Source of the DNA: Patescibacteria group bacterium
Lineage (GTDB): Bacteria > Patescibacteriota > Patescibacteriia > JAHIZJ01
Assembly: GCA_028714495.1 (NCBI GenBank)
Contig: JAQTMH010000001.1
Location: forward strand, 9,721 to 73,720
Length of the DNA stretch: 64,000 nucleotides
Reading direction: 5' to 3'
In this document: positions 12,558 through 51,200 of the stretch, piece after piece
How positions within the stretch are numbered: the first letter of the stretch is position 1
Layout of the letters: each line of letters starts with the position of its first letter
Notes under the pieces: generated by a model
Told to the model about the DNA's origin: nothing
Seen by the model: only the letters and a program-made list of their open reading frames with translations
Databases searched by the model: none
Translations under genes and position numbers: made by a program

Positions 12558-12962
12558 TTAAATATTGTCCAAATTTCCGTGTAGCACTACCGAATCTACC
12601 GCGATAAGTTCTTCATAGTGCGGATGGTCTTCGTGTATCGGATTAAGTAAAAATATTTTCTTTTGAAGAAAGATGGCAACAGATAGTTCCATTAAAGTAT
12701 TTGACCCAAAGTAACCCTTAATACCCTTCTTCTCGTGGTTTATTATTAATATGGCGTCGGAACTTTCGATCCTTTTGAAATGAAACTTGGTCCAAACAGG
12801 TTTCATTGCTAACAAATTTTCACGGCCATTATTTTTCTGATACCACTCCTCGGTAACTAATGGATCTGGAACATAAATCTCATGGCCTTTTTTCTTTAAA
12901 TGTTCAGCAGCCTTGCCCATTTCTTCCGCAAAGGTGGCACTTCCACATATTGTAATAATCAT
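12558..12962 (-). CDS. Nucleoside 2-deoxyribosyltransferase-like protein
   Basis: Small Rossmann-like protein (MIITICGS...GSNTLMELSVA) with a conserved Glu in a G-T-x-x-E-l context. Family assignment is tentative. Confidence 0.4.
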   Translation of the reverse strand: MIITICGSATFAEEMGKAAEHLKKKGHEIYVPDPLVTEEWYQKNNGRENLLAMKPVWTKFHFKRIESSDAILIINHEKKGIKGYFGSNTLMELSVAIFLQKKIFLLNPIHEDHPHYEELIAVDSVVLHGNLDNI

Positions 12963-12987
12963 AGAATTGAAAATATGTTGTGCGCTG

Positions 12988-13365
12988 TTAGATATATTTT
13001 CTGCAATTTTTGCTGCCGCAATCGCACTTAAAGTGCAGCTGTATATCGGCTACCGAGTAATCTGATGTGATTTCCTCGCCTTTTTTAATATCTTTGATCG
13101 CCACATCGCAGTTATTCCCTACTTTGGTATTTGGATCGCAAGAGTGATTTACAAATCGCTCAGGCTTTTGTTGCAGCAGGAATTCACCAGGCGTGTAGTG
13201 TGAGACATGGTGCCGTTCAGACTCAGGCAGCCTATCCACTTCTTCTTTTGTCAAAACCTTTTTAGATTTCCATTTCAACACTACTTCACCGCGTTTGAAA
13301 TTTCGTATGGCAAAAACCCCCTTCTTATTGAGTTTCGATTTTTTTACAACAATATCTTTTGACAT
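12988..13365 (-). CDS. SET-domain protein-lysine methyltransferase with post-SET Cys cluster
   Basis: GVFAIRNFKRGEVV (GxG region), NHSCDPN (NHSCxPN motif), EEITSDY (ELxxDY) and a C-terminal CDCGSKNC post-SET cluster. Confidence 0.8.
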   Translation of the reverse strand: MSKDIVVKKSKLNKKGVFAIRNFKRGEVVLKWKSKKVLTKEEVDRLPESERHHVSHYTPGEFLLQQKPERFVNHSCDPNTKVGNNCDVAIKDIKKGEEITSDYSVADIQLHFKCDCGSKNCRKYI

Positions 13366-13408
13366 AAGAAATGAGGAATGGTGTATAACATTTGTGTCTC
13401 ATGCGCTG

Positions 13409-13870
13409 TTAAGTTATTCCTAGCTGTTTATCTAATGGGGGATTTGAAAAATATACACGTACCGCAGTACCAGGTTCCATATATTCTATCATCTCAAAGT
13501 TGCCTTTATCGATTAGTGAAAAGCCCTTTTGATTAAGATGTGCCTTTTTGAATTCATCATAGTTAGACAGGGTGAAATCAGCATCACCCCGCTCAGGCCT
13601 GGTGGGATCAGGTTTGCGTATTTTAAGCAACTGTAGGTTCCCGGCCACAGTCGGTAAAGGTGCAATTTGAAAAAGAGGACCGGTTTTTGTTTCTTGGACC
13701 ACCTTTCCTAACTGCCCAGCAAGATTAATAACTGAGGTATATTCCTCATCGTTTTGGCAAAAAATGCAAGCATAATTCACTGGAGCAGGGTCATTGACAA
13801 ACTTCCGTTTCAGTACTTCAGCCTGAGCGATAATATCTTGTATGGTATTCTTCAAATCATCTATGTTCAT
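13409..13870 (-). CDS. Hypothetical protein (153 aa)
   Basis: ORF with a CxxC (CIFCQ) near the N-terminus. No recognisable family. Confidence 0.4.
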   Translation of the reverse strand: MNIDDLKNTIQDIIAQAEVLKRKFVNDPAPVNYACIFCQNDEEYTSVINLAGQLGKVVQETKTGPLFQIAPLPTVAGNLQLLKIRKPDPTRPERGDADFTLSNYDEFKKAHLNQKGFSLIDKGNFEMIEYMEPGTAVRVYFSNPPLDKQLGIT

Positions 13871-29400: not shown

Positions 29401-31176
29401 TTAAAAGTGTATTACCTGCCCAGGTCTAAGATGCCGGTCGCCCCTTGATTGGGTTTGACCCCCGGGCCTTCTCGGAAATCGGGGTTGCTGATTTTGGGGC
29501 TTCCGGAAGTTTTTAAAAGACATCGGCTCCCGAGTTAAAGCCTCTTTGAGGCTGATCGGCGTCGGGATTGATGATGCTTCTTCGACAATCTTCAAATCCT
29601 TTTCTACCGGCGCTGCTTTGGCTTCCTTTTTTCTTTCGGCTGGCGCGTTTTGATCACCGGCCATAGCCTGCAGAAAATTAATTCCTTCTCTATTCTTGTC
29701 TGGCGCTGTCTCGCGCGGCTTGACCTGCCGTGTTTCAGGCCTCGGACTAACTTTCCCTCGACCCTGCTCGGGATAAGCAGTCGGGGCATTTCTCTCAACC
29801 TTGCCCTGAAATACCATTTTCTCGATTTTTTCTTTTTCTTCGCGCCGCTGTCCATTTTCACCATTTTCCCCTTCCTCCATCTCAGCCATGCCGCTCCAGC
29901 GCATTATTTTATCCTCAACTACCGCCCGAGGCGTGGCATAACGCTCTCGCGAAACCCGGATGATCTTCTCGAGATTTCCCTCCTTAGCTCGGCTGTGAAG
30001 CGGGGGCAGGCCATGAGCTGAGAATGGCTCTGAAGCCACTCCGTCAATCATCAGCTTGAGATACATCTCAAATTTGGTCAGGTTTACCAGATCATTCTGC
30101 ATGAAAACGGGTTCAAATTCTTTTTCGAGATATTCCGCGTCAGTCGCGCCAACCCGGAAAGCCACAATTGTGCCGACATTGCCAAAAACCGCCGCCTGGA
30201 CTTCCTCGTCAAGCTGTTCAATGTACTGGTGGGCGATAATCAGGTCAAGGCGGTATTTCCGGGCTTCAGACAAGATATTGGCAAAACTCTCAGTGGCAAA
30301 ATTCTGAAACTCATCAACGTAAAGAAAGAAGTCGCGCCGTTCCTCCTCCGGAATGTCAACCCGGCTCATGGCCGCCAGCTGTAATTTCGTGATCATCATA
30401 GCGCCAAGTAAAGCCGCGTTATCCTCACCGATCCGGCCTTTAGATAGATTCATAATCAATATTTTCCCGGTATCCATGATTTCCCGCATATCGACTGAAC
30501 TCTTGGTTTGACCCACGATGTTGCGAATCACCGAACTGGATAAAAACTGGCCGACTTTGTTTTGGATTGGCGAAATCGCCTCGGTTCGGAATTGATTGCC
30601 ATAAGCCGCGTACTCCTCAAGCCAAAAGGTTCTCAAAATCGGGTCGTTAATTTTTGACACGACTTTTTTTCGATATTTGTTATCAACCAGTAGCCGGGTA
30701 ATGCCCAAGAGAGTTGAGCCCGGGTATTCCAAAAGGGATAGAACGGTATTGCGGAGTACGTATTCGAGACGCGGGCCCCAGGAATCAGCCCAAATTTTCT
30801 TGAAAACTCCCACTAGACCGGAGGCCACCAGGTGACGGTGGACTGGATTGACTGATTCGAGAACATTGAAGGCAATCGGGTAGTCAATATCGGCCGGATT
30901 GAAATATATCACGTCGTTGATCCGATCGGCTGGAATGTAATCCAATATTTCCTCGGCCAAATCACCGTGAGGATCAACCAGCGCCACGCCCCGGCCAGCC
31001 GTGATATCAGCCACGATCATCTGTTGCAATAGCGTGGTCTTGCCCATGCCGGTTTTACCGATGACATACATATGCCGGCGCCGGTCATCTAATTTAATGC
31101 CAAAACTCCTCCGCTGATTACGGAAATTTGTCTGGGCAAATAGAGCAATGTCTTTGTTGTCGGTGTCGTCGGGCAT
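29401..31176 (-). CDS. VirD4/TraG/FtsK-superfamily P-loop ATPase (T4SS coupling-protein-like) with charged low-complexity C-terminal tail
   Basis: Walker A YVIGKTGMGKTTLL, Walker B FLYVDEFQNF, IIAHQYIEQL. No N-terminal TM segments. The last ~190 aa are E/K/R/P-rich. Confidence 0.6.
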   Translation of the reverse strand: MPDDTDNKDIALFAQTNFRNQRRSFGIKLDDRRRHMYVIGKTGMGKTTLLQQMIVADITAGRGVALVDPHGDLAEEILDYIPADRINDVIYFNPADIDYPIAFNVLESVNPVHRHLVASGLVGVFKKIWADSWGPRLEYVLRNTVLSLLEYPGSTLLGITRLLVDNKYRKKVVSKINDPILRTFWLEEYAAYGNQFRTEAISPIQNKVGQFLSSSVIRNIVGQTKSSVDMREIMDTGKILIMNLSKGRIGEDNAALLGAMMITKLQLAAMSRVDIPEEERRDFFLYVDEFQNFATESFANILSEARKYRLDLIIAHQYIEQLDEEVQAAVFGNVGTIVAFRVGATDAEYLEKEFEPVFMQNDLVNLTKFEMYLKLMIDGVASEPFSAHGLPPLHSRAKEGNLEKIIRVSRERYATPRAVVEDKIMRWSGMAEMEEGENGENGQRREEKEKIEKMVFQGKVERNAPTAYPEQGRGKVSPRPETRQVKPRETAPDKNREGINFLQAMAGDQNAPAERKKEAKAAPVEKDLKIVEEASSIPTPISLKEALTREPMSFKNFRKPQNQQPRFPRRPGGQTQSRGDRHLRPGQVIHF

Positions 31177-36853: not shown

Positions 36854-37471
36854 ATGTCTACGAGACTGGTTGAGTTCTATGTCATGCGGCACGGTGAGAA
36901 GGACGGTGACGCTCTGACTGAAACAGGAAGGGAACAGGTCAGGCAGGCGACTCGCGAATATCTCGCAGATGCCGGGTTCTTCGCAGCTCTGTCTTCGGAG
37001 ATGGCCCGGGCTCATGAGACCACTCGGGTAGCACTCAAAGAACTGGATCAGGCTATGCTGACCACCCGCCAAGATCCGGGCTTCGGCTACGAGCATGCCA
37101 CCCGGGACTATCCCGAGGACACCATCCAAGCAGCCATGCTGAATGTTCAGTCTGCAGTAAAGGCAGGCGCAAAGGAAACAGTCAGGCTCTGGCTCCGACT
37201 CCGACCTGCTTCATGCCAGATCCGCGGCCGGTTCACCGAGTGCCTGTTCAAGTGGGCAGCTCGGTATGCAGACCGCATGGAGGGTGAACCCCTCATGTTC
37301 CTGGTCGGCAGCCACTCGCCTTGCAGCGAGTTGGCTGTCCTGGATCCTGACAACACCCCGCGTCTCGACTTGGCTGGGATCGTGAAGTATGTGGTCCGGG
37401 TCGATACCGAGACCCTGGAAGCCCAACTGGTCGGCTCCGAGGTGATCTTCCAAGGCTTCCCCGAGGTGTAA
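36854..37471 (+). CDS. Histidine phosphatase (phosphoglycerate-mutase superfamily)
   Basis: N-terminal RHGE catalytic motif (FYVMRHGEKDGD). About 58% GC. Own promoter and terminator. Confidence 0.6.
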   Translation: MSTRLVEFYVMRHGEKDGDALTETGREQVRQATREYLADAGFFAALSSEMARAHETTRVALKELDQAMLTTRQDPGFGYEHATRDYPEDTIQAAMLNVQSAVKAGAKETVRLWLRLRPASCQIRGRFTECLFKWAARYADRMEGEPLMFLVGSHSPCSELAVLDPDNTPRLDLAGIVKYVVRVDTETLEAQLVGSEVIFQGFPEV

Positions 37472-37634: not shown

Positions 37635-38111
37635 TCAGTTTATATCTGTAAAATCAATCACCGGATAGCTCATTTCTAAATCATTTATATATTCAACGCC
37701 GAATTTCTCCCTATACCAGTTATAACTTGAATATGGATACTCTCGATTCGCCTTTGCATAACCATGCTTAACCGGATTATGATGTATATAATTCAGCCTA
37801 GTAAAAAAATCTTTTTCCCCACGAATACAATTGTCCCAATAATTCCACCAGACTTTAGGGCCAGCTAGATTATCTAATCTGTTCAATTCATGCGCGCTTC
37901 CGCCATTAATAAATCTCGTCAAAGAACTTAACAATTTACCTCTTGGGAGGCTGAAAAGGATGTGGTAGTGATTCATCAATACTACCCATCCGTATAGATT
38001 AATCCCATATTTAATAATCGATTTTCGTAAACGATCTATTACAATTTCCATCTTCTGATTTGTGTTAAACAACCTTTTGCCATCAATTGTTCTTGAGGTA
38101 ACAAAATACAC
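37635..38111 (-). CDS. IS200-like HUH/Y1 transposase (TnpA), candidate REP-associated tyrosine transposase (RAYT)
   Basis: HUH motif (VVLMNHYHILF) and C-terminal catalytic Tyr region (RLNYIHHNPVKHGY). Single ORF without an IS605-type tnpB. Surrounded by hairpin repeats. Confidence 0.7.
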   Translation of the reverse strand: MYFVTSRTIDGKRLFNTNQKMEIVIDRLRKSIIKYGINLYGWVVLMNHYHILFSLPRGKLLSSLTRFINGGSAHELNRLDNLAGPKVWWNYWDNCIRGEKDFFTRLNYIHHNPVKHGYAKANREYPYSSYNWYREKFGVEYINDLEMSYPVIDFTDIN

Positions 38112-38362: not shown

Positions 38363-39805
38363 TCAGAGCTTTCTAATTACGCCCTCGCTTGCATCCACCT
38401 CCACCTTATCCCCATCCTTAAATACTTTAGTCGCGATTTTTGTGCCGACGATGCATGGTTTATGCAATTCCCGCGCCACAATGGCCGCGTGACAAGTAAT
38501 ACCGCCTTCGTCCGTGACAATCGCCGCGGCTCTCTTCATCACCGGAACGTATTCCGGCAGGGTCATGCCACAGATTAAAACATCCCCACCTTTTACTTTC
38601 CGGCTCGCCTCAGCCACGCCATTGCACACGCGCGCCCGCGCCCGAACAATGCCACTTGTCACACCCAAGCCCTTCAGCTCAGCTACCGCCCGCACAAATG
38701 AGCCAAGCGTCTGCTGCCGTTTTGTCAGAGCGCGACGGCCGCTTAAAATAGTTAAACGGGATTTATTGGCCAGGACAAACATTGTTTTCTTCCTCGTGAC
38801 TAATTCGCGCCGATTAAACTTCTGGCCGCGGAGAAATCGAAATATCTCATGGGAATAAAACCATTCGAGATCCTTGGCTGAAATGCCCAACTGACGCCCC
38901 GCCGCCCGCAGCCAGAGATGAAAGGCGTAGATGCTTCGGCATTGCATTTCTTTACGCCGATCGTGGTAATAGGCGTAACGGTCGAGAACCGCGAGCCAGT
39001 GCCTGATAGCGGATGAAAGTCTATATTTTTTAAGAAGCTTCTTGCGATTCTCGGCCGCGCGCTGAACCAGAGAAGCCATTTTGTTCAATTGCGTCTGACT
39101 GGGACGGTTTTTCCGGAAATGAACAGTCTTCTTAAGATAATCGTCTTCGCGGATAATCCTGGCCTCCTCCCAACCCAAAGGTGTCCACCAATAGCGCTCA
39201 TACAACCTATGAACATCAGCTGTTCTCAATCCCCGCCGAATCGCCTGATCCATGGCTAATTCTTCCTCGGCTACGTAAGTCTGATGAATTGGTGTGGCTA
39301 GTTGCTTGTAAATTTCGGCAAATTTTGCCTCTGACAAACCTTGGGGAAGCTCCTGACGCAGCCTGTCAATCAAGAATGTCTCAAAGACCGCATCCACCGC
39401 GTCAATGTCAAAATCAAGCCAGCCGTGCGCTGGTCCGGTTTCTTGAAAAAGCCACAGATTGAGCTTGATCAACTCGTCGTTGCTCAATCGGCGCAAATCC
39501 ATTTGTCGGACTTTCTCCGAGGCTTGATTCGCGTGCTCAATCAACTTTTGAATATCGCGAAAATGCCTGGCCTGACCGGATTTGGTTGAGCATTTATTTA
39601 TTATTTTTCTCCCCACGGTAAAAAGCTGCCGTTCATCCCAGCCCCAGGTCAAGTTTTGGCCATGCACGGTATAAAGCGCTCGGTCGGCGCGTGACCCGTT
39701 GTACCTAGTGCCGAACACCTGTACCCCCCGTAAGGCGATTTCAAGCCGATAAGCGGGGATGGTGCCGCGGGTGTAGGTAAACCATTTTTGTTTGATAGAA
39801 TTCAT
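38363..39805 (-). CDS. Protein with C-terminal PEP-utilizer phosphohistidine swivel domain (paralog A, 480 aa)
   Basis: C-terminal GGITCHAAIVARELHKPCIVGTKIATKVFKDGDKVEVDASEGVIRK. The N-terminal ~380 aa are helical and R/K-rich with no recognised motif. Confidence 0.7.
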   Translation of the reverse strand: MNSIKQKWFTYTRGTIPAYRLEIALRGVQVFGTRYNGSRADRALYTVHGQNLTWGWDERQLFTVGRKIINKCSTKSGQARHFRDIQKLIEHANQASEKVRQMDLRRLSNDELIKLNLWLFQETGPAHGWLDFDIDAVDAVFETFLIDRLRQELPQGLSEAKFAEIYKQLATPIHQTYVAEEELAMDQAIRRGLRTADVHRLYERYWWTPLGWEEARIIREDDYLKKTVHFRKNRPSQTQLNKMASLVQRAAENRKKLLKKYRLSSAIRHWLAVLDRYAYYHDRRKEMQCRSIYAFHLWLRAAGRQLGISAKDLEWFYSHEIFRFLRGQKFNRRELVTRKKTMFVLANKSRLTILSGRRALTKRQQTLGSFVRAVAELKGLGVTSGIVRARARVCNGVAEASRKVKGGDVLICGMTLPEYVPVMKRAAAIVTDEGGITCHAAIVARELHKPCIVGTKIATKVFKDGDKVEVDASEGVIRKL

Positions 39806-39827
39806 GATTGTAATAGTTAATCAGGCG

Positions 39828-39851
39828 CTATCATGCTATATAGCATGATAG
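39828..39851. repeat. REP-like perfect palindrome between paralogs A and B
   Basis: CTATCATGCTA-TA-TAGCATGATAG. Same CATGCTA-NN-TAGCATG core as 37567-37590. Confidence 0.6.
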
Positions 39852-39860
39852 CATTCACCA

Positions 39861-41309
39861 TTACCTTATCTTTTTTACTATTCCTTTTGTGGCATCAACC
39901 TCAACCCTATCTCCATCCTTCAAAACTTGAGTGGCGATCTTAGTGCCGATGATGCAGGGCTTGCCCATTTCGCGTGAGACAATTGACGCATGGCAGAGAA
40001 TCCCGCCTTCATCAGTGACAAAGGCGGCCGCTTTTTCCATGGCCGATATGAAATTCGGAAAAGTCATGACCGCCACCATGACATCGCCGCGTTTTACTCG
40101 CGATAAATCGCGCGTCGATCGCACGATTCGGACCGTGCCTTTCATCTTTCCTTTATAGGCAACCGTGCCGAAAAACTGTTTATTATCCGGGTGTGTAGAA
40201 AATATCATTCTAAGTCTTTTTTTCCATGTCCGGCCAGAAAAAACGTAATATTTTCCCTCGTGATACCATTCTCCATAAAACTGTTTCCGACGCCGTATTT
40301 CCTCCTTGGAAACAGGCGCCCGACCGGTTTTGGCCATGCGCATCAGTTCAATAAAAGTCAGATAGACAACATCATCTTCAGGAAAGCGCGCGCGTCGGGC
40401 AATTTCATAAAAAAGATTTCGGGCAAAATACCCGGCCGAATATATCGTATCAGAACGCCACGTCCGCAAATAGGCAAATTCTTTCGCTAGTGAAATACAT
40501 GTTTTGAGTATGCGCTGGCGAGTTATTTTTAATTGACGATTTAATGCCTGAGCTCTTTGAAATATCACCCGGCGCTGCGTCTCAATCCTTCGCAACTCAC
40601 GAGCGGGATTTTTCTTTTGCGCTCTAAGCTCTTTTAGACGTATCTCAATGTCTTTTTCGGTCCAGGCGTCATCCCACCAATATCCGCGGGCGCCGATCCA
40701 AGCGAATTTTTCCACATGTTTGGCAAGCCGCAGACGATATGCGGCACGATTCTTCCGAAACAGTTGGAGAAGTTTATACAATGAACGTTCCTCTGTCATA
40801 TGGCTGTTTTCCCTATCTGGAAAAGTTAGCGTGCGTAACCACTCTCTCTTTTTCTCTTCCGGCGCAGGCGGTAATTCATCTAAAATTACCTGGCTAAGGT
40901 ATGAATCTACCACCGCGAGCGGAGTCAGAAAATTATGAGCACATGAAGCGTAACGATGGTATTTCTTTGCATAATATACTAATCGTCTTCGCGGCCAACT
41001 CGAGCATTCCTGCTTTTCCAAGAAATGGGCTAAGCGATCAAGACGCGTAACATGACAGACAAGACGTTGCCTAAATCGACTCAAGAGCTTAACCCCGCCT
41101 CGCTGATATATTTCAGAGAGATTTGCCAGGCAGTGATCGCCGTAGATAAGCGGTCCCTCTGATAACCGAAAAACGTTTTTGACCGGCCAGTGGAATCCGG
41201 CGGCTCGGTAAAAATATTCCCCCGCGTTGTCCGTTATTGAGCGCATAAGCAGGGCTTCACGCCGCGAAACCAGTTGCTGCCACTCGATTTTTTTGATTTT
41301 GTCCAGCAT
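39861..41309 (-). CDS. Protein with C-terminal PEP-utilizer phosphohistidine swivel domain (paralog B, 482 aa)
   Basis: C-terminal GGILCHASIVSREMGKPCIIGTKIATQVLKDGDRVEVDATKGIVKK. Confidence 0.7.
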   Translation of the reverse strand: MLDKIKKIEWQQLVSRREALLMRSITDNAGEYFYRAAGFHWPVKNVFRLSEGPLIYGDHCLANLSEIYQRGGVKLLSRFRQRLVCHVTRLDRLAHFLEKQECSSWPRRRLVYYAKKYHRYASCAHNFLTPLAVVDSYLSQVILDELPPAPEEKKREWLRTLTFPDRENSHMTEERSLYKLLQLFRKNRAAYRLRLAKHVEKFAWIGARGYWWDDAWTEKDIEIRLKELRAQKKNPARELRRIETQRRVIFQRAQALNRQLKITRQRILKTCISLAKEFAYLRTWRSDTIYSAGYFARNLFYEIARRARFPEDDVVYLTFIELMRMAKTGRAPVSKEEIRRRKQFYGEWYHEGKYYVFSGRTWKKRLRMIFSTHPDNKQFFGTVAYKGKMKGTVRIVRSTRDLSRVKRGDVMVAVMTFPNFISAMEKAAAFVTDEGGILCHASIVSREMGKPCIIGTKIATQVLKDGDRVEVDATKGIVKKIR

Positions 41310-41310
41310 A

Positions 41311-42825
41311 TTATATTCGTTTTACTATCCCCTTAGTCGCATCAACCTCCACACGATCTCCATCTTTAAATACCTTGGTCGCGATTTTTGTGCCAATCAC
41401 ACAGGGCACGCCGAGCTCGCGCGAGATAATGGCGGCATGCGAAGTTATTCCGCCAGCATCTGTTACGATAGCTGATGCTCTTCGCATGGCTGGAACTAAT
41501 TCTGGAGAAGTTGCCGGTGATATAATAATGTCTCCAGCATCGAATTTCGCCAGATCAGAAGCACTGCGCAGAATAACCGCGTGGCCTTGCGCCCGGCCCG
41601 TACAAGCGCACATGCCCGTCAACTCCCGATAAGTCCCTCTAACTTTTAACGAGTTATTAATCTCATTTATCACCCGTTTGGCCTGATTGGCTGGTAAAAC
41701 ACTCCACTTTAAGCCATCAAGCCAAACCACGGTTTCCTTGGCTCGTTTGAGTAATTCCTTCCGGGTGTAATGTTTTTGAATCAAGACTCGACGCATTTCC
41801 CAAGGAGCCAGCGATTGAATGGCAATCAAAGGGACATTAATTCGTCTGGCTATTTCAACCAGCAGCTCATGAATTAAATATTGGCCTTGAACCGTCAACT
41901 TCTTACGCCAACGTTTCAAGCCGCCAATGTCCCGCAAGGTGATAAATTTACGGCGCTGGCTTGAATCCATTTTTAATCGCTTAAACCAGACGGCCTGCTT
42001 CTGCCTAACCGTTTTATCCGCATGTTTCAGGGCACTCAATTGTTTCTGAAGCTGTCGGCGTGGCTGGCTGGCGTGGCGGAGAATATCATCAAGCGTTTCT
42101 AGAAGTCTTTTTTTGGGGCCGCTGTAACCATACGACAAATAAGCAAACCGCTCATGGTAGGCGGAAATTCGCTTCAGGGTTTTTGAATCATTTTTCTGCA
42201 AGTAGGATAATAAAGCTTCTGGAGATTTGGATTTATTAATATCTGACCGTAAGACTATTTTTATTAGCTCAATTTCAGCCAGCCGGTTTTCATTTTCACC
42301 AACCGGCGTGGTCAGGACCGTAAAGATAGTCCCAGCATCTGATCGTAATCTTTTCGGCGCGGCTGTTTGAAGATATTCATATAGCGGACCGGACAAAACC
42401 GGCTCCTCAAACTCCATCACTGTTCCATAGGTACTGGCGGCCAAAATCCCCTGGGCTAATTTTGACCATTGCTCGTATAATTTTAATAGTTCAATATTGG
42501 CCAGGCTTCGCAAATCTGTCTGGTAAATCTTCTGTGATAGCTTTAAAAACGGTTTAATCAATCGGCGAGTTGTCTGCCACATCCAGGGTAAAAATTTTCG
42601 ATCGGTTTCCAGGCGCTCGAGGATTTTTCGGCCAGGTTCAGCTAAGCCGTTTTTTACCACGCATTCGCGAACCGAACGGCCATGGTAAATTAAAGCGATC
42701 GGTCCGGATCGGGCGCCGACCTTGTGTGAGGCGATTGACGCGCCCATGTAATAAAGCGTCATGGGAAAATTTGCCGCCGGCTCTTCATCAAGCTGTACCC
42801 ATTGACGCGAAATGACCTTGCTCAT
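41311..42825 (-). CDS. Protein with C-terminal PEP-utilizer phosphohistidine swivel domain (paralog C, 504 aa)
   Basis: C-terminal GGITSHAAIISRELGVPCVIGTKIATKVFKDGDRVEVDATKGIVKRI. 1-nt spacing to paralog B. Confidence 0.7.
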   Translation of the reverse strand: MSKVISRQWVQLDEEPAANFPMTLYYMGASIASHKVGARSGPIALIYHGRSVRECVVKNGLAEPGRKILERLETDRKFLPWMWQTTRRLIKPFLKLSQKIYQTDLRSLANIELLKLYEQWSKLAQGILAASTYGTVMEFEEPVLSGPLYEYLQTAAPKRLRSDAGTIFTVLTTPVGENENRLAEIELIKIVLRSDINKSKSPEALLSYLQKNDSKTLKRISAYHERFAYLSYGYSGPKKRLLETLDDILRHASQPRRQLQKQLSALKHADKTVRQKQAVWFKRLKMDSSQRRKFITLRDIGGLKRWRKKLTVQGQYLIHELLVEIARRINVPLIAIQSLAPWEMRRVLIQKHYTRKELLKRAKETVVWLDGLKWSVLPANQAKRVINEINNSLKVRGTYRELTGMCACTGRAQGHAVILRSASDLAKFDAGDIIISPATSPELVPAMRRASAIVTDAGGITSHAAIISRELGVPCVIGTKIATKVFKDGDRVEVDATKGIVKRI

Positions 42826-42827
42826 AC

Positions 42828-43754
42828 TTATATTACCTTTTTAATCTGTAATTCCCGGCGCGAGAGGAAAAAGAAAAACCCCACCACGATAAATGTTATG
42901 ACCGGCGATACCCAGGAAGAAACGTGAATCTCAAAGCTTTCCAAAATCATAATCAAACCTAAGAGGCCAATCGAGTACATTGCGCCGTTTTTCAAATAGG
43001 CGTATTTCTTTACTGTGTTAATTCCATGCACGGTTAAATATCGGACAATAAACGCACCGATGCCATTGCCCACAATGATCAGCGGAACGGAGATCGTGAA
43101 TGCGAACGCGCCCAGCACGCCATCAATTGAAAAAGAGGCATCAATCAATTCTAGGTACAAAACCTTGCTGATATCACTTAAATGGCCGTGCATTAGCTGT
43201 TTTTCCTTTTCTTCCGCGTTCCTCTTGAAACCGCTGACGATAAAAAAGGCCGTTGATCCAACCACGGCGCCAAGTGAAATAAGAGGATTAAGCCTGATGG
43301 TCGACCAGACGATTACCAGCAGAATAACCGAAGCGATGGCGTAAAACCAAAAACCAAGCTTGTGGTGAATATGCCGCTCGATGAAAAAGGCGTATTTCTT
43401 TTCTTCGAGAAAAAGCCAATGCAAAAAGAGGAAAATGAGAAAAATGCCGCCACCAGCCAAAAGCACCGGCGCCTGTTTCTCAATCGCTTCTTTGGCGCCG
43501 CCGCCTTGGGAAAACGTCGCGATGAAAGCCTCCCCGATGCTCAAGCCCGGCGTGGAAAGATAGACGATCAAGAGCGGCAGAAGTCCGCGGATGACAAATA
43601 CGGCGAAAAATATACCGTAAATCAAAAACCATCGCCGCCAGCGCGCCGACATAGTACCGAGGATGTCTGCGTTCACAACCGCGTTATCAACACTGGTGAT
43701 TGTTTCAAACAAAACTAGTCCTACAACAACGACGATGATACTTTCTAGGCCCAT
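42828..43754 (-). CDS. Integral membrane protein, DUF475/TerC-like
   Basis: About 8 TM helices. LYLELIDASFSIDGVLGAFAFT matches the DUF475 conserved segment. Confidence 0.5.
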   Translation of the reverse strand: MGLESIIVVVVGLVLFETITSVDNAVVNADILGTMSARWRRWFLIYGIFFAVFVIRGLLPLLIVYLSTPGLSIGEAFIATFSQGGGAKEAIEKQAPVLLAGGGIFLIFLFLHWLFLEEKKYAFFIERHIHHKLGFWFYAIASVILLVIVWSTIRLNPLISLGAVVGSTAFFIVSGFKRNAEEKEKQLMHGHLSDISKVLYLELIDASFSIDGVLGAFAFTISVPLIIVGNGIGAFIVRYLTVHGINTVKKYAYLKNGAMYSIGLLGLIMILESFEIHVSSWVSPVITFIVVGFFFFLSRRELQIKKVI

Positions 43755-43890
43755 TTATTAAAAAGTTTGCGTTATTTATGCTTAAATAATAAGCTATTAT
43801 TGGTCATTTGTCCATCGGTAATCGGTATTGATACAAACGTAGGCGAGGATGATCATCCTCGCCTACTGCGAAACTATTATCCAAAATTAT

Positions 43891-45306
43891 TTATGTCACC
43901 AGCGTCAGCCGGTCCTTTTCTTTCCTTATCGTTGCCCACTTAAAAGTGCCGGTGACTGTATCGATAAAAGACGCCTTCAGGTATTTTCGGCCGAGAAGAT
44001 TGGCCAGTTTGGTGGCAATTCTGGCTGAATCAGACTCCAGCATCCCGATTTTGTTTCTTAGAATATACTGCAACCACAGGCTGTAAAAAATCGGGTCAGC
44101 CGGCATCTTGCTAAATTGATCCTCTGCCTCGACGCCGTATTTATCCTTGAGCGACTGGCGAAAACCCGCGTCAGCGGCCATGACCGTGAAGAAGTCCTGG
44201 GTTTTAGCCAAAACAATCAAAAAGGCCACCAGTTTAATCCGATCGCGCTTCTGAATCACCTCATCCAATTCTTGCCTAACATTAAGCGTGCCCTGGCCGA
44301 CTTGAGCTAGAATTGCCCTTTCTTCCTCGGCAATCGCTCTCTGCTCTTCGGGATTCTGGGTGTAGGCCTTGATTATATCTCTTGTCTGCAAATGTCTAGC
44401 TGTCTCTGGCTTAGTAATTTGTTTTTCCTCAATCTCTGGCTTTAACCGGTTAGTTGTTATCCTGTCAGTATCAATATTGTCTGGCGCGTTTCCTGTCTTA
44501 GTCTTTACTGGCGACATTGCGAGATATTTTGCCACCTCGGTTATATTCATCTTTTCTTTTTTATATTCCTCATATTTGTCTAAAACACCTCCGCGAATCG
44601 CCCCAATTGCATCTTCTTCATCGATGTCAGCCACCGACTCAAAACCGGCAGGATCATCAGATGGTGTCTTCAGCTTTTCAACCAAAATTAAAAGCGAACG
44701 CAATTTTTCTCGAGAGTCGGCAGAAATATTTTTCGTGTTAGGACTATTAACTAAGTAATCGGCAAGTTGTACTATCGGGATGCTCTTAGTGCCTAGATTG
44801 ATTACCGAATCTATAAGCCAGCTTTTGATCGTGCCCTTTTGTTCCACCCCGTCCTTAGTCACGGTCTCGGGAGTAAAAATCTCATTATTCTCCCTCAAGG
44901 CTTCAATAATTTTCCTTTTGTACAGGTTGCGGCTTTCCAGCGTCACCATGCTCACGAGAAGGCTTTTTATTTTTTGCCAGGGATCGTAATCAGGTATTTC
45001 ATAAACTAGCGAAAAATGGTTTTTAAAAAATTCTAAAGCCTTGTCTTCGGGATATTGCGTCAATGCGATAAAATTGAGTTTCCACTGCAGTCTGTCGTAT
45101 CCGCGATAAAGCTCGGGCGAGCTTGTCTCCAAGTCGCTCTGGAGTTCCAGCAATCGTTTGATGTTATCTGCCAACATAAAAGCCCCCTCGCTATTGTCAA
45201 ACTTAGCGAATTTTTCATAATACGACTGAAATTCTCTCAGGGTTTCCGGTTTTCGCAAATCCGGCAATTCAACTGGCGGTTTTTTAGTTGCGGAATTGAT
45301 AGCCAT
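43891..45306 (-). CDS. Hypothetical protein (471 aa)
   Basis: Soluble, charged, helical. No recognised motif. Last gene of the giant-protein operon direction. Confidence 0.45.
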   Translation of the reverse strand: MAINSATKKPPVELPDLRKPETLREFQSYYEKFAKFDNSEGAFMLADNIKRLLELQSDLETSSPELYRGYDRLQWKLNFIALTQYPEDKALEFFKNHFSLVYEIPDYDPWQKIKSLLVSMVTLESRNLYKRKIIEALRENNEIFTPETVTKDGVEQKGTIKSWLIDSVINLGTKSIPIVQLADYLVNSPNTKNISADSREKLRSLLILVEKLKTPSDDPAGFESVADIDEEDAIGAIRGGVLDKYEEYKKEKMNITEVAKYLAMSPVKTKTGNAPDNIDTDRITTNRLKPEIEEKQITKPETARHLQTRDIIKAYTQNPEEQRAIAEEERAILAQVGQGTLNVRQELDEVIQKRDRIKLVAFLIVLAKTQDFFTVMAADAGFRQSLKDKYGVEAEDQFSKMPADPIFYSLWLQYILRNKIGMLESDSARIATKLANLLGRKYLKASFIDTVTGTFKWATIRKEKDRLTLVT

Positions 45307-45329
45307 ACTATTAATATATACCTCAATCT

Positions 45330-48212
45330 TTAAGTAACAGACCTTTTAACATCATGAGCGCGCAGGGTTTCACCAACCTGTCTGATCTTTTCCATTTCGT
45401 CCGTAGACACGCCTCCTTCTTCCGGCTGGGTAGCGGCAAAGTGTTGCAACTGGATTAAAGCATTATCATATTCCTCTAACTTAACATCGACATATTTCTT
45501 CTGAAATACCGGGACCTTAGCATCAATAATCTTGCCATCGCTTCCCAGATACTCTTTCTTCAATTCGGGTGATGCTTCTTTGCTTCTAAGATAACGCTCG
45601 AGCGTACTCCTAGTTTCTGCTTCGGATTTCAGGGTTCTCTCGGTCATTTCGCGCAATGGCCCGGTCAATAAATCCATATTGTATCTGACCAGGTGTGCCG
45701 CGGCATTGGCGTTATATCGCTCTTTTCCAATCAGACTGCTGATAGCTGGAAATTTCTCCACGAACATCGAAGCCCCAGCCTGATTAAACCGTGAATATCG
45801 ACCCTTTGAGGGATCTTTCGGATCATACAGAAATTCATCGCAGGGTGATAATCGACTCGACCTACGCATATGATTTTCGAAATCCATTTTCGACTGCTCA
45901 ATTTTTGACCGCGTCTGCTGGTCATCTGTCGCCCGCTGAAAGAATTTGCCTCGCCTCGAACCAACTCCCTCGATAATTCCGTCATGTCCAGTCTCATAGG
46001 CGATTTTGCTGACGTCACTCTGGAGTCCAAAAGCGGTTTGCTTGTCCTGCCCTAGCTGCCTGACGAACGCTTCCTGGACAAAGGCGCTTAAGCCTCTCTG
46101 GCTATATTCAAAGTGGTCGCCAACCTCGGCAAATGGATTACCTTTATTGTCAAACTGTTTTTCTATCTGTTCTTTGGTCAATTCATGTTTTTTGATATAA
46201 GCCCTCATGTCATTCTCATTCATTACGCCTTCTCCGGCAATTCCTCTAGCCGCATCGCCCCGATGGTGATAATAGTTTGTCGTCGCCGCCGGTCCATAAT
46301 TACATAATTCATTTTCATGCCCGACTTTTGCCGCTTGGAGAAAAATTCCTCTAGCCGCATCAGCATCTCCGCGCGCCATAGCGCCATTGAACGAATCTAT
46401 CAATTCATCGGCAACGTTTGTCGGATATTTCTTTCTTTCCTCCTCGTCCTTAATCCGCCTCATTTGTTGATACAGAGTATCCCGAGGCGCATACCCCTCC
46501 CAGTGCGCTATATCTTTTTTTAAACGATTCACTTGCGAACTCGCGCTGTCCCTTCTCCTGACTGCCGCTATATATTCATCTCCGCCATGTTTCTCAGCTA
46601 ATTCCTTCTGGACCTGGGCAACTATTCTCGGATCATTGATATCTTTTATTCCTGTCTTATCGGCAATTTCACGCTGTCTATTTAAGTATTCAAATGCCAG
46701 CGCGGGGTTTTTTGCCACTGCTTCTTCTATATCTTTTGTCGCTTTATCAGCGCTGCTTAGACCTTTTTCCTTTTCTCGAAGATCTTCGTCTTTTTTCTTT
46801 AACATACCCTTATGGACCAGGGTCTTTAAACCATGAGAATAAGCAAAACCTCGAAAATATGTCGTAACCAGAGAAGGCGCAGCCGCCCCTAATAACGGAG
46901 CTGTGAGGCCGCCTTTCATTAGTCTTTCCTCGGCATACATCTGTTTGAGAAAATCCTCCTCGCCGCGCTTACCAGCCATTCCCCGTTTGATGTTCTGATA
47001 CACATCCACGGGATTGAGCGGCAGACCTTTTAATCTTTCTCCGCCCAGCCATTTTGGCAAACGGCCGGCTGAAGCCTTTCTTGAAAGCCAGTTATAACCT
47101 TGAAACGGCGCCTTGGCGATCCTCGAAGAAACCCCCTGCCTGACTGACTGGGCGAGATTACCACCCAGAGTTTTTAATTCGTTCGCCGCCATGCTCGCCG
47201 CGAAGAGCAAAGCCACGGCCACGATATAATTCATCAAATTTTTCGAACTGGAAATGTCTGAAATCGCCGCGGAGATGCCTAACGGGTTCACTGAATCCTC
47301 GGTGGTTGTAAGACTGTTATTCGCGCCAGCGCTTGCCAATTCTTCACCCGCCTGCCCGGGATGAGCCGGATTAGATAATACGGTCATGGCCAACCACAGG
47401 AAAAAAGCCAAAACAGGCCCCACTACCAAATATTGTCCGAACATCTTCCACCACTTCGAAGCCAGGGACTTCATCTTGTCCATGGCCTCGCCCAGATAAG
47501 CCAACGGCGACAATACCACTAAAATCCATAACATTAGAATCCGCCCCAGCAGAATAATCGTTACCATCAGCACCGCCCCGATCATAATGGCCAGCAAAAT
47601 AATGCCTAAGATGATGGCGCCGATCACCTCGCCCACCTCGACCTTCTGGTCGCCGATCTGCTCGGAAAACATCAAAATTTTCTGCAGGCCCGCCCCGCTG
47701 GTCAGATTACCCGCCGCCGCGTCCTTAAAGGCGTTGACAAAAGTCATCATGATGACTTGCGACAAGTCAATGAAAAATCCGGCAATCGACTTCGAGAAAT
47801 TTATCAGGAAAGCCATGAGGATAAATTTCGGCAAGGAGCGTTTGTAATGATACGATTCGATCCTCATGACCGTGCCCCAGGCGATGATCAGCAGGACTAT
47901 TATTAGCAGCATGTTGCAAAGATCGCGCACCGCTACCCAGCCCTTTTCAACCGCGTATGACCTGACGAAATTATTAAACTTGGCGACTGTCAACATTATG
48001 TCGATCAGCACCAGCAATAATTTACCAAGCAAGGAGAGTATGGTAAATAGGACTTTTGCCAAAAAATTAGCCAACGTTTCATCCAATGGACCAAACAGGC
48101 CTGCCCGCGCCGGGGACCAGGCAACCAAAACTCCTATCAATATAAAAACTACCGAGCCGATAATCAGCCAGCGCCGCGTCTTTTGACTGGGATGGAAATC
48201 TAATCTAAGCAT
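45330..48212 (-). CDS. Polytopic membrane protein (960 aa) with large hydrophilic C-terminal domain; possibly VirB6/TrbL-like
   Basis: Seven to eight TM helices in the first ~330 aa, then ~600 aa charged/helical. 10-nt gap to the giant gene. The VirB6 analogy rests on topology only. Confidence 0.5.
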   Translation of the reverse strand: MLRLDFHPSQKTRRWLIIGSVVFILIGVLVAWSPARAGLFGPLDETLANFLAKVLFTILSLLGKLLLVLIDIMLTVAKFNNFVRSYAVEKGWVAVRDLCNMLLIIVLLIIAWGTVMRIESYHYKRSLPKFILMAFLINFSKSIAGFFIDLSQVIMMTFVNAFKDAAAGNLTSGAGLQKILMFSEQIGDQKVEVGEVIGAIILGIILLAIMIGAVLMVTIILLGRILMLWILVVLSPLAYLGEAMDKMKSLASKWWKMFGQYLVVGPVLAFFLWLAMTVLSNPAHPGQAGEELASAGANNSLTTTEDSVNPLGISAAISDISSSKNLMNYIVAVALLFAASMAANELKTLGGNLAQSVRQGVSSRIAKAPFQGYNWLSRKASAGRLPKWLGGERLKGLPLNPVDVYQNIKRGMAGKRGEEDFLKQMYAEERLMKGGLTAPLLGAAAPSLVTTYFRGFAYSHGLKTLVHKGMLKKKDEDLREKEKGLSSADKATKDIEEAVAKNPALAFEYLNRQREIADKTGIKDINDPRIVAQVQKELAEKHGGDEYIAAVRRRDSASSQVNRLKKDIAHWEGYAPRDTLYQQMRRIKDEEERKKYPTNVADELIDSFNGAMARGDADAARGIFLQAAKVGHENELCNYGPAATTNYYHHRGDAARGIAGEGVMNENDMRAYIKKHELTKEQIEKQFDNKGNPFAEVGDHFEYSQRGLSAFVQEAFVRQLGQDKQTAFGLQSDVSKIAYETGHDGIIEGVGSRRGKFFQRATDDQQTRSKIEQSKMDFENHMRRSSRLSPCDEFLYDPKDPSKGRYSRFNQAGASMFVEKFPAISSLIGKERYNANAAAHLVRYNMDLLTGPLREMTERTLKSEAETRSTLERYLRSKEASPELKKEYLGSDGKIIDAKVPVFQKKYVDVKLEEYDNALIQLQHFAATQPEEGGVSTDEMEKIRQVGETLRAHDVKRSVT

Positions 48213-48221
48213 TATGAAAAT

Positions 48222-51200
48222 TTATGAGGTAACTTTTACAATTCCTGAGAAATAGCTCGAACAATAGGCGGGTGAACTGCCGCAAGGGAACGGCTCCGCT
48301 TCAGACCATCGACAAGTCGCGAACGGCGTATCACCGCCCCGGCACGCTCCTTGGCAGCTACCACCAAAACACTCAGCATTATTAGCGCATTGCTGGCCGT
48401 CACGATCACCACCAGAACAATTTCCGCTGCCCTTTTCCCAATTGTCCTGAACCCACACTCTCACGTAGCAGCCATCTGCACAGCTTGGATATACATACTC
48501 ATGGTGGGCATAGTGATAGGGACCATCGGGATTTGAGAGCGGTCCGATTGCTACGTTTATTGTCTGGAGGGGTGTGCCGTCGCCCCAGTCAATAAATATA
48601 TTCTTTATTGGTATCTGTTCAGAATCGACCGTCGAATTAAAGCTCAATATGGCCGTGCCGCCGCCGTTTGGAATTTGTATTGCCCCGGTCCGGTTGTTAA
48701 TCTTGATATTAAATACCGACGGCTGGATCCAACAATAATCATAGGGAAAGCCGCTGGTTTGATCGGGCCGCGTATCAGAACTTTCGCCGGTATTATTTAC
48801 TAAGCGGCATTGAGGCATGCTAGCGAAATCATTGTTATAGGCTGTCCTAAAGAGCGTGGTGTCTTCGAAATATTTAGTGTCGCCCGGATTATAAGTCAGG
48901 CCGTCATCAATCTGATTGCAATAATTATCAGGATTTGTGTAGCCGCCCTGTAACTCATCGCATTGCTGTCCAGACAGTAGGCCGCCAACACAGACCTTAT
49001 CACCGCATTTATCCGGCGCACTAGGGCATTCTTCAATGACGCAGGGACAATCATCCTCGACATTACATCCTTCGCCAATATTATCGCCGACCGTGCAGAC
49101 ACCAATATATTCCTCACAGACGCCGCCGCTCACTCCGAAACAAGCCGCGTCAGAACCGCAGGCCTGGCCGCAGTAATATCCGCAACCTCCGGTTTGCTCA
49201 TCACCTTGCCAGGCGCAAACTGCTTCAGCGCAAAAACCATCCGGCACCTGATTGCCGTGTTCGTCAATGCCCCCCTCGCAATCATTGTCGTCTTCACAAG
49301 CCAGCTTGTCGTTTAAGCCTCCGACGCAGACTGCGTCAGCGCATACCCCCCCGGCTCCGCAAACGCCGGTTTCTTCGCAAAGCTCAAGCGACGTACTGCA
49401 CCTTTCTCTTTCACTGCAGGCCACTCCAGGTTCACAATTGCACCTATTAGCGCTCTTACGGCAGATATCCGCGTCGCTAAGGCAGGTGCCTAAACCCTGA
49501 CAATAATTCTGAGGCGTACCATTTGAAGCGCAAAGCTGGCTCGGCCGGCCGCTGCATACTCCATTAGCGCAGAAGCCGCCTGTGCCCTCGCAGTCGCATT
49601 CAAAAGTTCCGTAGGTACATTTGGAATTTGTATTGCAGGTATAAGTAGTCGGGCAATTGTTTTCAATGCTGCACGACACTGTTGTGTCTCCGTCACAACG
49701 CTGTCTCACCGCGCCGCACATATTGTCTACGGGCAGACACACATCCTTTGGCGGTGGCAGGCCTATGCAATCATCATTAGTCACACAAGGCCTGGAGCCT
49801 AAGGTTCTGCCTCCGCACCACCAACCGCATTCCTCATCTTCCGTGCAAGCGGGACCAGTAAGGTCATCCTGACAAACCGTGACCGTGGTGCAAGTGCCAA
49901 TACCCGGACAGTCGCAGTCTGGATTTGTGTTGGAAACGCACTTTTTATCTCCGCCGACCGAGGAACAGGTCGCGCCGAGCGGACAATTATTTGATATCGA
50001 GCAGGCTGCTCCTGGTTCATCTCCGCCTTCGCAGCGCTCGGATACACAGGCATCGTCTCCTCCGCCAGTACAAATAGAAAGGCCACAGGTTGTGGTCGTT
50101 CCCTCACAGACCCATTTGGGTTCACACACTTCTCCTGCCGGACAGCCGCAAGGCTCACCTTCTTTTTCACCGCCGACGCAGATTTTACCAGCGCAAACGC
50201 CGGCCGCGATATTACAATTCGAATTATCACCTTCGCTGCAGTTTTCTCCGGCCAGCAGGTAGTCCGGGTTACTCGAGGTGCAGGAATATTCATTCACGTC
50301 CGTACACCGTCCATCACCCCAGACCCAGACGCCTAGCACGTCGGCAAAAAGCCTCTCAACCCTCTTCAAACCTAAGCCACCGCCTTCAGCTTCATAACCT
50401 GTCGGCGGCTGTCCGGGCAAGGGCGGATACCCGGGCATGGCCGGATCCAAGCTCCCACTGAACTGCTCAATCGGCTTAAAAGTACTCGGAAATACGTCAT
50501 CGCAGGCTGTTACCCCGCTAGTATTGTGCTTGCACGAATATGGCGCTCCAGCCCGGGCAAGCTCTAAATAACTTGAATCCCAGAAACTCGCGTATGGATT
50601 TAGATCACCGCTTAGATAATAAATCGGCTGCATTTTTGATTTCAAATCATAGGCCTCGGTAAAAGGATCTCCCCAGGCCGAGTTGAAGTCCGAATCCCAG
50701 GTTCCCGGGTCATTAATGTCATTCGTTCCTTCAGCAGTCAGGCTCTGTTCGCCGGGTGGCACTAGGCTGCCGTAGTTATCTAGGTCCGAAGTGGGTTTTT
50801 CCGTATAGCCGATATCCCAAACCGCCGAGAGACCTCCATTTATCCTCTGCGCCCAAGCCGTGTTCTCGCCGTTTGAATCAACCGCCCGGCCGACCACATC
50901 ACAGCGCAGCGCCAATACTTCGGTCTTCAAATATGGGTAATCCCAGGGGCTGTTTCTTCCGCCGACAAGATTTCCATCAAAAGGCGCCCAGAAGCCAGCC
51001 AGGGGTTCTTTTTTACTCGTATATTCTAACGGCTCATCATGATCATCCCCATGTTCATAGTAATCGCAAACATCGCTCGACGGTATCCCATCTGGAATGC
51101 AAACATGCCAGCATTGATCCTGGTGACCGCCACCCCTGACAGCCTTTTCGCAGAGGAATTTATAATAACCATCAGCGCATTTATGGTTATGCGCGTAATT

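Follow-up and report, generated by a model that had tools for sequence, protein, structure and literature searches.

How might proteins that end in a phosphohistidine swivel domain, and that carry neither an ATP-grasp domain nor a phosphoenolpyruvate (PEP)-binding barrel, receive phosphate and pass it on? The question is raised by three adjacent genes in a 64,000-nucleotide (nt) stretch of a Patescibacteria genome (GenBank assembly GCA_028714495.1, contig JAQTMH010000001.1, positions 9,721 to 73,720), hereinafter the window, whose first letter is position 1 of the coordinates given below. Each gene product combines a rifampin-binding-like substrate domain (R) with a C-terminal swivel phosphohistidine carrier (S), an arrangement hereinafter designated RS; A denotes an ATP-grasp domain. 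We give a probability of roughly 0.6 to the reading that the RS proteins are the substrate and carrier half of small-molecule dikinases of the rifampin phosphotransferase (RPH) family, handling three substrates and charged in trans by a shared ATP-grasp head.

Three tandem genes pair a substrate domain with an intact swivel carrier

The three RS genes are co-directional on the minus strand, with intergenic gaps of 55 and 1 nt. Paralog 1 (41311-42825, 504 residues) consists of a substrate domain at residues 1-399 (nt 41629-42825) and a swivel at residues 400-504 (nt 41314-41628), with the catalytic His463 in the motif GGITSH (codon 41437-41439) and the family-invariant Arg307 encoded at 41905-41907. 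An NCBI protein named 'PEP-utilizing enzyme' is identical to it over its whole length, and the N-domains of its orthologs are 51-59% identical to its own. In paralog 2 (39861-41309, 482 residues), the substrate domain occupies nt 40179-41309 and the swivel nt 39864-40178, with His440 in GGILCH (codon 39990-39992) and the conserved Arg285 at codon 40455-40457; its ortholog in a syntenic locus (L010, described below) is 49% identical. Paralog 3 (38363-39805, 480 residues) has its substrate domain at nt 38681-39805 and its swivel at nt 38366-38680, with His439 in GGITCH (codon 38489-38491) and the conserved Arg284 at codon 38954-38956. It matches the N-domain profile with E = 1.4e-135, the profile having been built partly from paralog 3 itself.

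A reading made from the sequence alone (hereinafter the sequence-only reading) had described three tandem genes ending in a PEP-utilizer swivel, with divergent, helical N-terminal regions that lack ATP-grasp and PEP-binding TIM-barrel domains, and both descriptions hold. The swivels match PF00391 with E values of 5.1e-25, 8.6e-23 and 1e-24 in paralogs 1, 2 and 3, and scores reach 80-92 bits against a gathering threshold of 23.1 in the three paralogs and in a 109-residue stand-alone swivel protein of the window; the catalytic His in the GGxx[CS]H loop is intact in all four. Overall identity among the three RS proteins is 24-27%, and nearly all invariant columns fall in the swivel, the last ~100 residues. 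In a Pfam scan, neither PF01326 (PPDK_N) nor PF02896 (PEP-utilizers_C) matched any of the three proteins, and their N-terminal ~380 residues matched no Pfam family; the RS proteins begin directly with the R domain. Of the two outcomes that would have overturned the sequence-only reading, N-domains that score as PPDK_N and a substituted catalytic His, neither was observed. The same reading had called these N-domains Arg/Lys-rich. They are indeed basic (isoelectric point (pI) 10.2, 18-20% Lys plus Arg), but this is not diagnostic because the other proteins of the window have a median pI of 8.5, and we make no use of it as a pointer to an anionic substrate.

The substrate domain resembles that of rifampin phosphotransferase

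An AlphaFold2 model of the 504-residue protein, computed from 10 sequences, has a mean predicted local distance difference test score (pLDDT) of 86.3 and a predicted template modelling score (pTM) of 0.80, and is mostly helical before the swivel. When this model was compared with the Protein Data Bank (PDB) by Foldseek, six entries of the Listeria rifampin phosphotransferase (RPH-Lm) were the top matches. Four of them gave E values of 8e-13 to 7e-12 and template modelling scores normalised to the query (TMq) of 0.53-0.58 over ~570 columns (for 5fbu, 5fbt and 5hv1, E values of 8e-13 to 4e-12 and TMq of 0.55-0.58), a length which indicates that the match spans both the rifampin (RIF)-binding and the swivel domains; two entries of the G527Y mutant gave E values of 2e-12 and 2e-11 with TMq of 0.32-0.40. 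The remaining matches cover the swivel only.

Sequence comparisons point in the same direction. A profile of the R domain alone, searched against PDB sequences, has RPH as its sole top match (E = 0.025, RPH residues 614-733), and in a PDB sequence search RPH-Lm residues 700-864 align with residues 311-479 of paralog 2, whose alignments to the RPH-like, PigC and RedH models of NCBIfam reach back to residue ~224-250. Judged by sequence and predicted structure, the N-domains are RIF-binding-like substrate domains. The RPH-like architecture without a nucleotide-binding domain, which the sequence-only reading had recognised, is therefore borne out by the Foldseek matches and by the NCBIfam and PDB alignments into the substrate region.

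Across 111 aligned family members (504-residue numbering), near-invariant positions of the R domain are R307 (98%), K308 (87%), E324 (95%), R328 (94%), E343 (99%) and R361 (100%), and the Arg of the R307 position is kept in all three window paralogs. The R307/K308 motif, [YFW]RK, maps to a helix of RPH, 'GYREYPKY', which bears Arg666, Glu667 and Lys670. Replacement of Arg666 or Glu667 by Ala abolishes the second phosphotransfer of RPH, and Lys670 is also essential (PMC4844700).

Family size and links to ATP-grasp domains and phosphatases

An exhaustive profile search places the N-domain in a large family. Counted as representatives of clusters at 50% identity, its members number 4083, 2392 and 359 at E cutoffs of 1e-3, 1e-10 and 1e-30, and their usual length is 470-520 residues. 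A word-index homolog search with the N-domain alone or with a 12-sequence profile returned 6-8 proteins only, and a related-locus search of GTDB genomes with a closer N-domain alignment returned two loci. Among the best 150 of the 4083 representatives, 119 have the plain RS architecture, 10 are RSRS and two are RSRSRS, so the form lacking an ATP-grasp is the norm rather than a product of decay. Four of these 150 carry one ATP-grasp, in the arrangements ARS (P0161, PF01326 E = 1.4e-99), ASRS, ARSSRS and RSRSRSARS.

RS genes occur in arrays of three to nine paralogs in Patescibacteria and archaea. Locus L010 has six RS genes, the same upstream synteny as the window and, at the far end, a histidine-phosphatase-superfamily (His_Phos_1) gene 51% identical to that of the window; L015 has six RS genes with His_Phos_1 inside the array. 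In L009, from a Methanosarcinales metagenome-assembled genome (MAG; CAZYIM010000003, 8484-20508), nine tandem swivel-ending paralogs of 354-501 residues lie on one strand. The L009 array adjoins enolase and split transketolase genes.

A link to an ATP-grasp is seen in a Patescibacteria MAG (GCA_028711455.1 and the 651-kb contig JAQULM010000001; L001, L002 and L008), where a 58%-identical full-length ortholog of the 504-residue protein sits in an array of six RS genes. Two HAD hydrolase genes are interleaved with this array, a His_Phos_1 gene follows, and a stand-alone PPDK_N protein of 319 residues is encoded ~4 kb beyond, which the NCBIfam models of PEP synthase and RPH match over their N-terminal ~315 residues with E values of 1e-100 to 4e-89. 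A second case is L006, from a complete Moraniibacteriota genome (CP064975.1, 9077-16872), where a 1521-residue open reading frame (ORF) reads PPDK_N (PF01326 E = 2e-102)-R-S-R-S and the next ORF, of 1128 residues, reads S-R-S-R-S. The deposited gene calls span only parts of these two ORFs. Altogether, PPDK_N lies near or is fused to family members in L001/L008, L006, P0161, P0211, P0222 and P0103, and because one ATP-grasp is fused to or stands beside several RS units, we infer an arrangement of one head with many substrate modules. The idea that basic RS proteins might pair with an acidic ATP-grasp by charge was dropped as inconsistent: the L001 A protein has a pI of 9.0 and the L006 A domain a pI of 4.8, and the proteome is basic overall.

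Phosphatases are linked to the RS genes as well. His_Phos_1 is found with RS in four of the five bacterial loci and flanks or interrupts the arrays in L001 and L015; the L001 protein has a weak SixA-like N-terminal match (E = 9e-5, below cutoff). HAD genes are interleaved with RS arrays or fused to them (P0233). One such fusion, an RS protein of 721 residues with a C-terminal HAD phosphatase (L014 1387-3552; P0233/P0257), joins a kinase-type module and a phosphatase in a single chain; its contig also encodes two archaeal markers, one a histone-fold protein and the other IF5A-like.

A proposed dikinase with the ATP-grasp in trans

In a subfamily of two-component RPH-type dikinases (HpeHI, CreHI and the phenylphosphate synthase PpsAB), the H/A subunit combines a RIF-binding-like domain with a swivel and the I/B subunit is an ATP-grasp; ATP-dependent phosphorylation needs both subunits, and the swivel His is essential (JBC 2025, PMC12167813). 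In the mechanism that we propose for the RS proteins, a PPDK_N-type ATP-grasp protein, with its gene at another place in the genome, would bind ATP and charge the swivel His with the beta-phosphate, leaving AMP and Pi. The charged swivel would swing onto its own R domain and deliver the phosphate to a hydroxyl of the bound small molecule, a transfer that the invariant Arg/Lys motif of the R domain would assist. The linked His_Phos_1 and HAD phosphatases would remove phosphate again, either from the carrier His or from products that have first undergone a further step.

The three R domains would accept three different substrates while depending on one common ATP-grasp subunit. Different substrates are most likely because the R domains are ~20-25% identical yet keep the catalytic residues, and because two of them have orthologs in other genomes. 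Orthologs of the 504-residue paralog and of the 482-residue paralog occur in different genomes, whose remaining array members differ. This indicates old paralogs within a changing repertoire, in keeping with different substrate specificities.

Several observations weigh against this proposal. The ATP-grasp is missing from the 64-kb window, which is part of a 343,867-bp contig: phmmer with the L001 PPDK_N gave a best E of 1.2, BLASTP gave no match, and neither a two-sequence hidden Markov model nor Pfam scans of most ORFs of at least 150 residues found one. Nor was a PPDK_N found within 10 kb of the arrays in L010 and L015, or of that in L009, where the search covered the 21-kb locus. The R domain is very distant from the H/A subunits characterised so far: alignment to the PRK08296 models is confined to the swivel, and identity to RPH is ~14-15%. 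The register of the conserved Arg relative to RPH Arg666 is uncertain by ~3 residues: in the hmmalign placement K308 meets Lys670, and when the motif is matched by eye R307 meets Arg666. Finally, we know of no system in which one ATP-grasp has been demonstrated to serve several RS proteins. The trans-acting kinase partner suggested by the sequence-only reading is thus backed by the linked PPDK_N of relatives and by the HpeHI-type precedent (PMC12167813), but not by any gene in the window.

A stand-alone swivel paired with a protein of unmatched fold

The window contains a further swivel gene, 26 kb from the RS array. It encodes the 109-residue protein S (12155-12484, minus strand), which matches PF00391 with E = 1.2e-26, carries His67 in GGITSH (codon 12284-12286) and aligns to positions 354-462 of the NCBIfam PEP synthase model with E = 5e-37. 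S overlaps by 14 nt, and is translationally coupled to, a gene for a 356-residue protein (X356, locus tag PHI73_00095; 11098-12168, minus strand).

The sequence-only reading had taken 11098-12484 for a permuted, split copy of the RS proteins. The swivel gene overlapping a 356-residue ORF is real, but its partner shows no homology to the RS N-domains (BLASTP best E = 4, hhalign probability 0.1%) and belongs to a different secondary-structure class. X356 was also rejected as an ATP-grasp, a PEP-utilizers_C TIM barrel or DhaK, having no match in Pfam, NCBIfam or PDB sequences and no Foldseek match in PDB or BFVD. Its 93 homolog clusters (38-77% identity) include none with a Pfam domain, and all the named ones are from Patescibacteria; 18 residues are invariant, in motifs such as HGLYNDxVTDxGWDxYGPY and VGCHT, and include the polar H231, D166 and K287. 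The AlphaFold2 model (pLDDT 94.4, pTM 0.92) is mixed alpha/beta, a central beta-sheet being flanked by helical parts from the two ends of the chain. Foldseek found no significant PDB match (best E = 0.17, TM 0.13, RPH absent) and none in BFVD, and an X356 profile matched no PDB sequence.

A swivel gene lies directly upstream of X in 35 of 36 loci, and in the remaining locus the contig ends there; the loci include L006 7676-9077, L007 7688-9080, L011-L013 and L016-L046, and in some the pair is tandemly duplicated. In 34 of the 36, the neighbours of S-X are housekeeping genes and no RS is nearby; in L039 an RS unit is adjacent. In CP064975.1, the stop codon of X overlaps the ATG of the A-RS-RS gene (TAATG), making S, X, A and the RS units one translationally coupled string. 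We read S-X as an independent, conserved two-gene pair and as another type of swivel-dependent module, one whose partner domain has a novel fold; given its confident but unmatched model and its 18 invariant residues, X356 is a candidate new enzyme fold that acts together with a phosphohistidine carrier. Directly upstream of S-X in the window (12558-13870, minus strand) are genes for a 125-residue SET-domain protein (PF00856 E = 2.8e-15) and for two small proteins that match no Pfam family, a neighbourhood not conserved among the other S-X loci.

Alternative explanations

The RS proteins might instead work independently of any ATP-grasp, moving phosphate from a compound X-P to the His and on to an acceptor Y while the phosphatases supply or drain the phospho-pool. 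HpeH alone catalyses such a phospho-exchange, from 4-phosphoacetophenone to acetovanillone (PMC12167813). Both the dominance of plain RS (119 of the 150 best representatives) and the failure to find an ATP-grasp, either in the window or less than 10 kb from the L010, L015 and L009 arrays, would agree with it. We nevertheless regard this as unlikely, given that a single PPDK_N fused to or adjoining RS units recurs in the same family and that all characterised relatives require an ATP-grasp for net phosphorylation (PMC12167813). Somewhat less probable again is a non-canonical phospho-relay, which the sequence-only reading had offered as its other option, with S-X356 as a phospho-donor module feeding RS from His to His in the manner of a phosphotransferase system (PTS) cascade. 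The constancy of the S-X pair (35 of 36 loci), the confident yet unmatched fold of X with its 18 invariant residues, the contiguous and translationally coupled S, X, A-RS-RS and S-RS-RS of Moraniibacteriota and the RS unit adjoining S-X in L039 all speak for such a relay. On the other hand, 34 of the 36 S-X loci have no RS nearby, 26 kb separate S-X from the RS array in the window, and X has no recognisable nucleotide- or PEP-binding motif. Transfer from swivel to swivel has, to our knowledge, not been described for PF00391 domains.

That RPH is the best structural match, and that rph-like genes have been counted among resistance-like genes in genomes of the candidate phyla radiation (CPR) (PMC8651080), might suggest genuine RPH orthologs that inactivate rifamycin-type antibiotics or toxins. 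We consider this very improbable: the RS proteins miss the RPH model cutoffs by an order of magnitude, have no ATP-grasp and are ~14-15% identical to RPH, and by the RPH authors' own account the majority of the family are not rifampin enzymes (PMC4844700). Inactivation of another toxic small molecule would be compatible with the trans-dikinase reading. Decay of PEP synthase or RPH genes that lost their N-termini would account for the lack of an ATP-grasp and might be hinted at by an IS200-like transposase gene adjoining the array, but it is effectively refuted by the conservation data: the three ORFs are intact and keep the catalytic His and the invariant R residues, orthologs of the same length exist elsewhere, the 4083 representatives are mostly ~500 residues long, and the AlphaFold2 model is compact and confident.

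If the RS proteins are indeed charged in trans, Patescibacteria and some archaea might run a modular phosphorylation system in which one free ATP-grasp head charges the swivels of many interchangeable RS modules, in arrays and fusions, and of S, with X356 as a third, fold-novel type of substrate or catalytic domain; we put this forward tentatively, as a possibility with the odds against it.

Genomic context of the array

The window encodes Mfd, DprA, TopA, ParAB, SecDF, Lgt and DsbA-like proteins, a VirD4-like ATPase and a giant protein of 3331 residues containing a CBM domain, a content that is CPR-like and fits a CPR bacterium. Two nucleotides upstream of paralog 1 ends a gene for a DUF475/TerC-family membrane protein of 308 residues (42828-43754, minus strand; PF04332 E = 2.4e-47, NF010612 405 bits against a cutoff of 386), which is probably the first gene of a transcription unit shared with the RS array. 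The association is not conserved in related loci, the gene being absent from the syntenic locus L010, and we therefore assign it no role. Upstream of the DUF475 gene (43786-43866, minus strand), a consensus scan found a 12-bp hairpin resembling a terminator (43866-43839) and, after it, a promoter-like site (43814-43786); these are consensus matches, in a number not clearly above shuffled expectation, and may mark the start of a DUF475-RS-RS-RS operon.

On the other side of the array, and convergent with it, is the His_Phos_1 gene of the window (36854-37471, plus strand), which encodes a protein of 205 residues with an RHG motif (PF00300 E = 1.2e-6) and has its L010 ortholog at the same position. 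Between the two, at 37635-38111 on the minus strand, lies the gene for an IS200-like Y1 transposase-family protein of 158 residues (PF01797 E = 1.5e-4, just under the gathering score). Plus-strand ORFs opposite the swivel regions (41375-41632 and 38514-38858) were rejected as genes, since their resemblance to antisense ORFs of L001 is a by-product of the conserved domain encoded on the other strand. We also rejected any link to anti-phage defence, as PADLOC-DB 2.0 gave no match for the three RS paralogs or S; its weak matches, under the E threshold of 0.01, were a 14-bit CARF hit for X356 (E = 0.006) and 16-21-bit Cas5e hits for the His_Phos_1 gene.

Synteny directly upstream of the RS array is kept between two genomes, from 43891 to 58217 (minus strand) in the window and from 1 to 9913 in L010, at 41-49% protein identity. 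Its members are the ~3330-residue giant protein (3346 residues in L010) with one CBM_4_9 domain, a ~950-residue protein (934 in L010) with a weak TrbL/VirB6-like match and a ~470-residue protein (463 in L010) without a Pfam match. The window encodes a VirD4/TrwB-like coupling ATPase (29401-31176, minus strand) and a weakly TrbL/VirB6-like membrane protein (45330-48212, minus strand), possible pieces of a Patescibacteria type IV secretion-like machinery. At 8787-10196 (plus strand), a PEGA-domain/PD40-repeat lipoprotein-like gene of 469 residues with a TTG start lies in a local GC peak (0.55, compared with 0.42-0.45 across the next 4 kb) and may be a foreign acquisition.

Discussion

The ATP-grasp acting in trans, which we invoke by analogy, is already known, having been established for HpeHI, CreHI and PpsAB. 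What is new is a very large unannotated sister family, its arrays and RS-RS fusions in Patescibacteria and archaea, its linkage to phosphatases, the S-X356 pair and, if our proposal is right, one ATP-grasp shared by several RS units. Two-component RPH-type dikinases have been recognised only recently, and only in the aromatic-compound catabolism of free-living bacteria. Arrays of three to nine RS genes are maintained in Patescibacteria, whose tiny genomes have few spare genes, and in archaea; that so many genes are devoted to the family suggests that phosphorylation of diverse substrates is important to organisms with a largely uncharted metabolism. The family also offers a handle on what these symbionts take from their hosts or defend themselves against. 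Should the modular system exist as sketched above, it would, together with the phosphatases, constitute a major uncharacterised route by which genome-reduced symbionts activate, trap or detoxify host-derived small molecules.

Comparison with known systems

Among proteins that use a swivel of this type, the N-terminal domain of PTS Enzyme I and DhaM are likened to S in being PF00391-type phosphohistidine carriers that work between two catalytic sites. In contrast to those systems, no PEP-binding domain, HPr, DhaK or DhaL is detectable with S, and X356 matches no known fold. In sequence, the RS swivels are closest to those of PEP synthase and pyruvate phosphate dikinase (PPDK) (NF005057 E = 1e-31 to 1e-35; PDB 8a8e E = 1.4e-22), and like PEP synthase they carry the GGxT[SC]HAAI motif, with its regulatory-Thr position present in two of the three paralogs. 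Unlike PEP synthase and PPDK, the RS proteins have neither PPDK_N nor the TIM barrel, the fold of their second-substrate domain is different, and they score 93-112 bits on TIGR01418 against a cutoff of 740.

The prodiginine ligases PigC, RedH and HapC belong to the same superfamily, and the alignment of paralog 2 extends ~240 residues into their substrate domains. They are full-length three-domain enzymes, however, on whose models RS proteins score 56-72 bits against cutoffs of 1300-1350, and the RS genes have no prodiginine pathway context. RPH-Lm (5FBS, 5FBT, 5FBU and 5HV1) is the best and only strong structural match to RS over both R and S, and its C-terminal ~170 residues align with RS at the sequence level. 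By contrast with RS, RPH-Lm is a single chain of 867 residues with an N-terminal ATP-grasp, and RS proteins reach 65-74 bits on the RIF_Ptrans_rph model NF041857 (cutoff 999) and 44-61 bits on NF000283 (cutoff 1700).

The two-component dikinases differ from RS in that HpeH is larger (71 kDa, compared with ~480-504 residues for the window proteins) and in that one H gene stands beside one I gene, whereas RS genes form arrays of three to nine divergent paralogs. The window array also has no adjacent partner gene and no link to aromatic-compound catabolism, and on the PRK08296 models the RS proteins score 62-101 bits against cutoffs of 578-730, aligning over their last ~105 residues only. In domain layout, the correspondence is exact. 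Like HpeH, CreH and PpsA, the RS proteins begin with a RIF-binding-like substrate domain, end in a swivel and carry no ATP-grasp on the same chain; in HpeHI, CreHI and PpsAB the ATP-grasp is a separate protein of ~320-340 residues, as is the stand-alone 319-residue PPDK_N of the L001 relative. The Hpe cluster, moreover, pairs its dikinase with the phosphatase HpeD, a NagD homolog (PMC9618137), and the linkage of RS arrays to phosphatases parallels this pairing.

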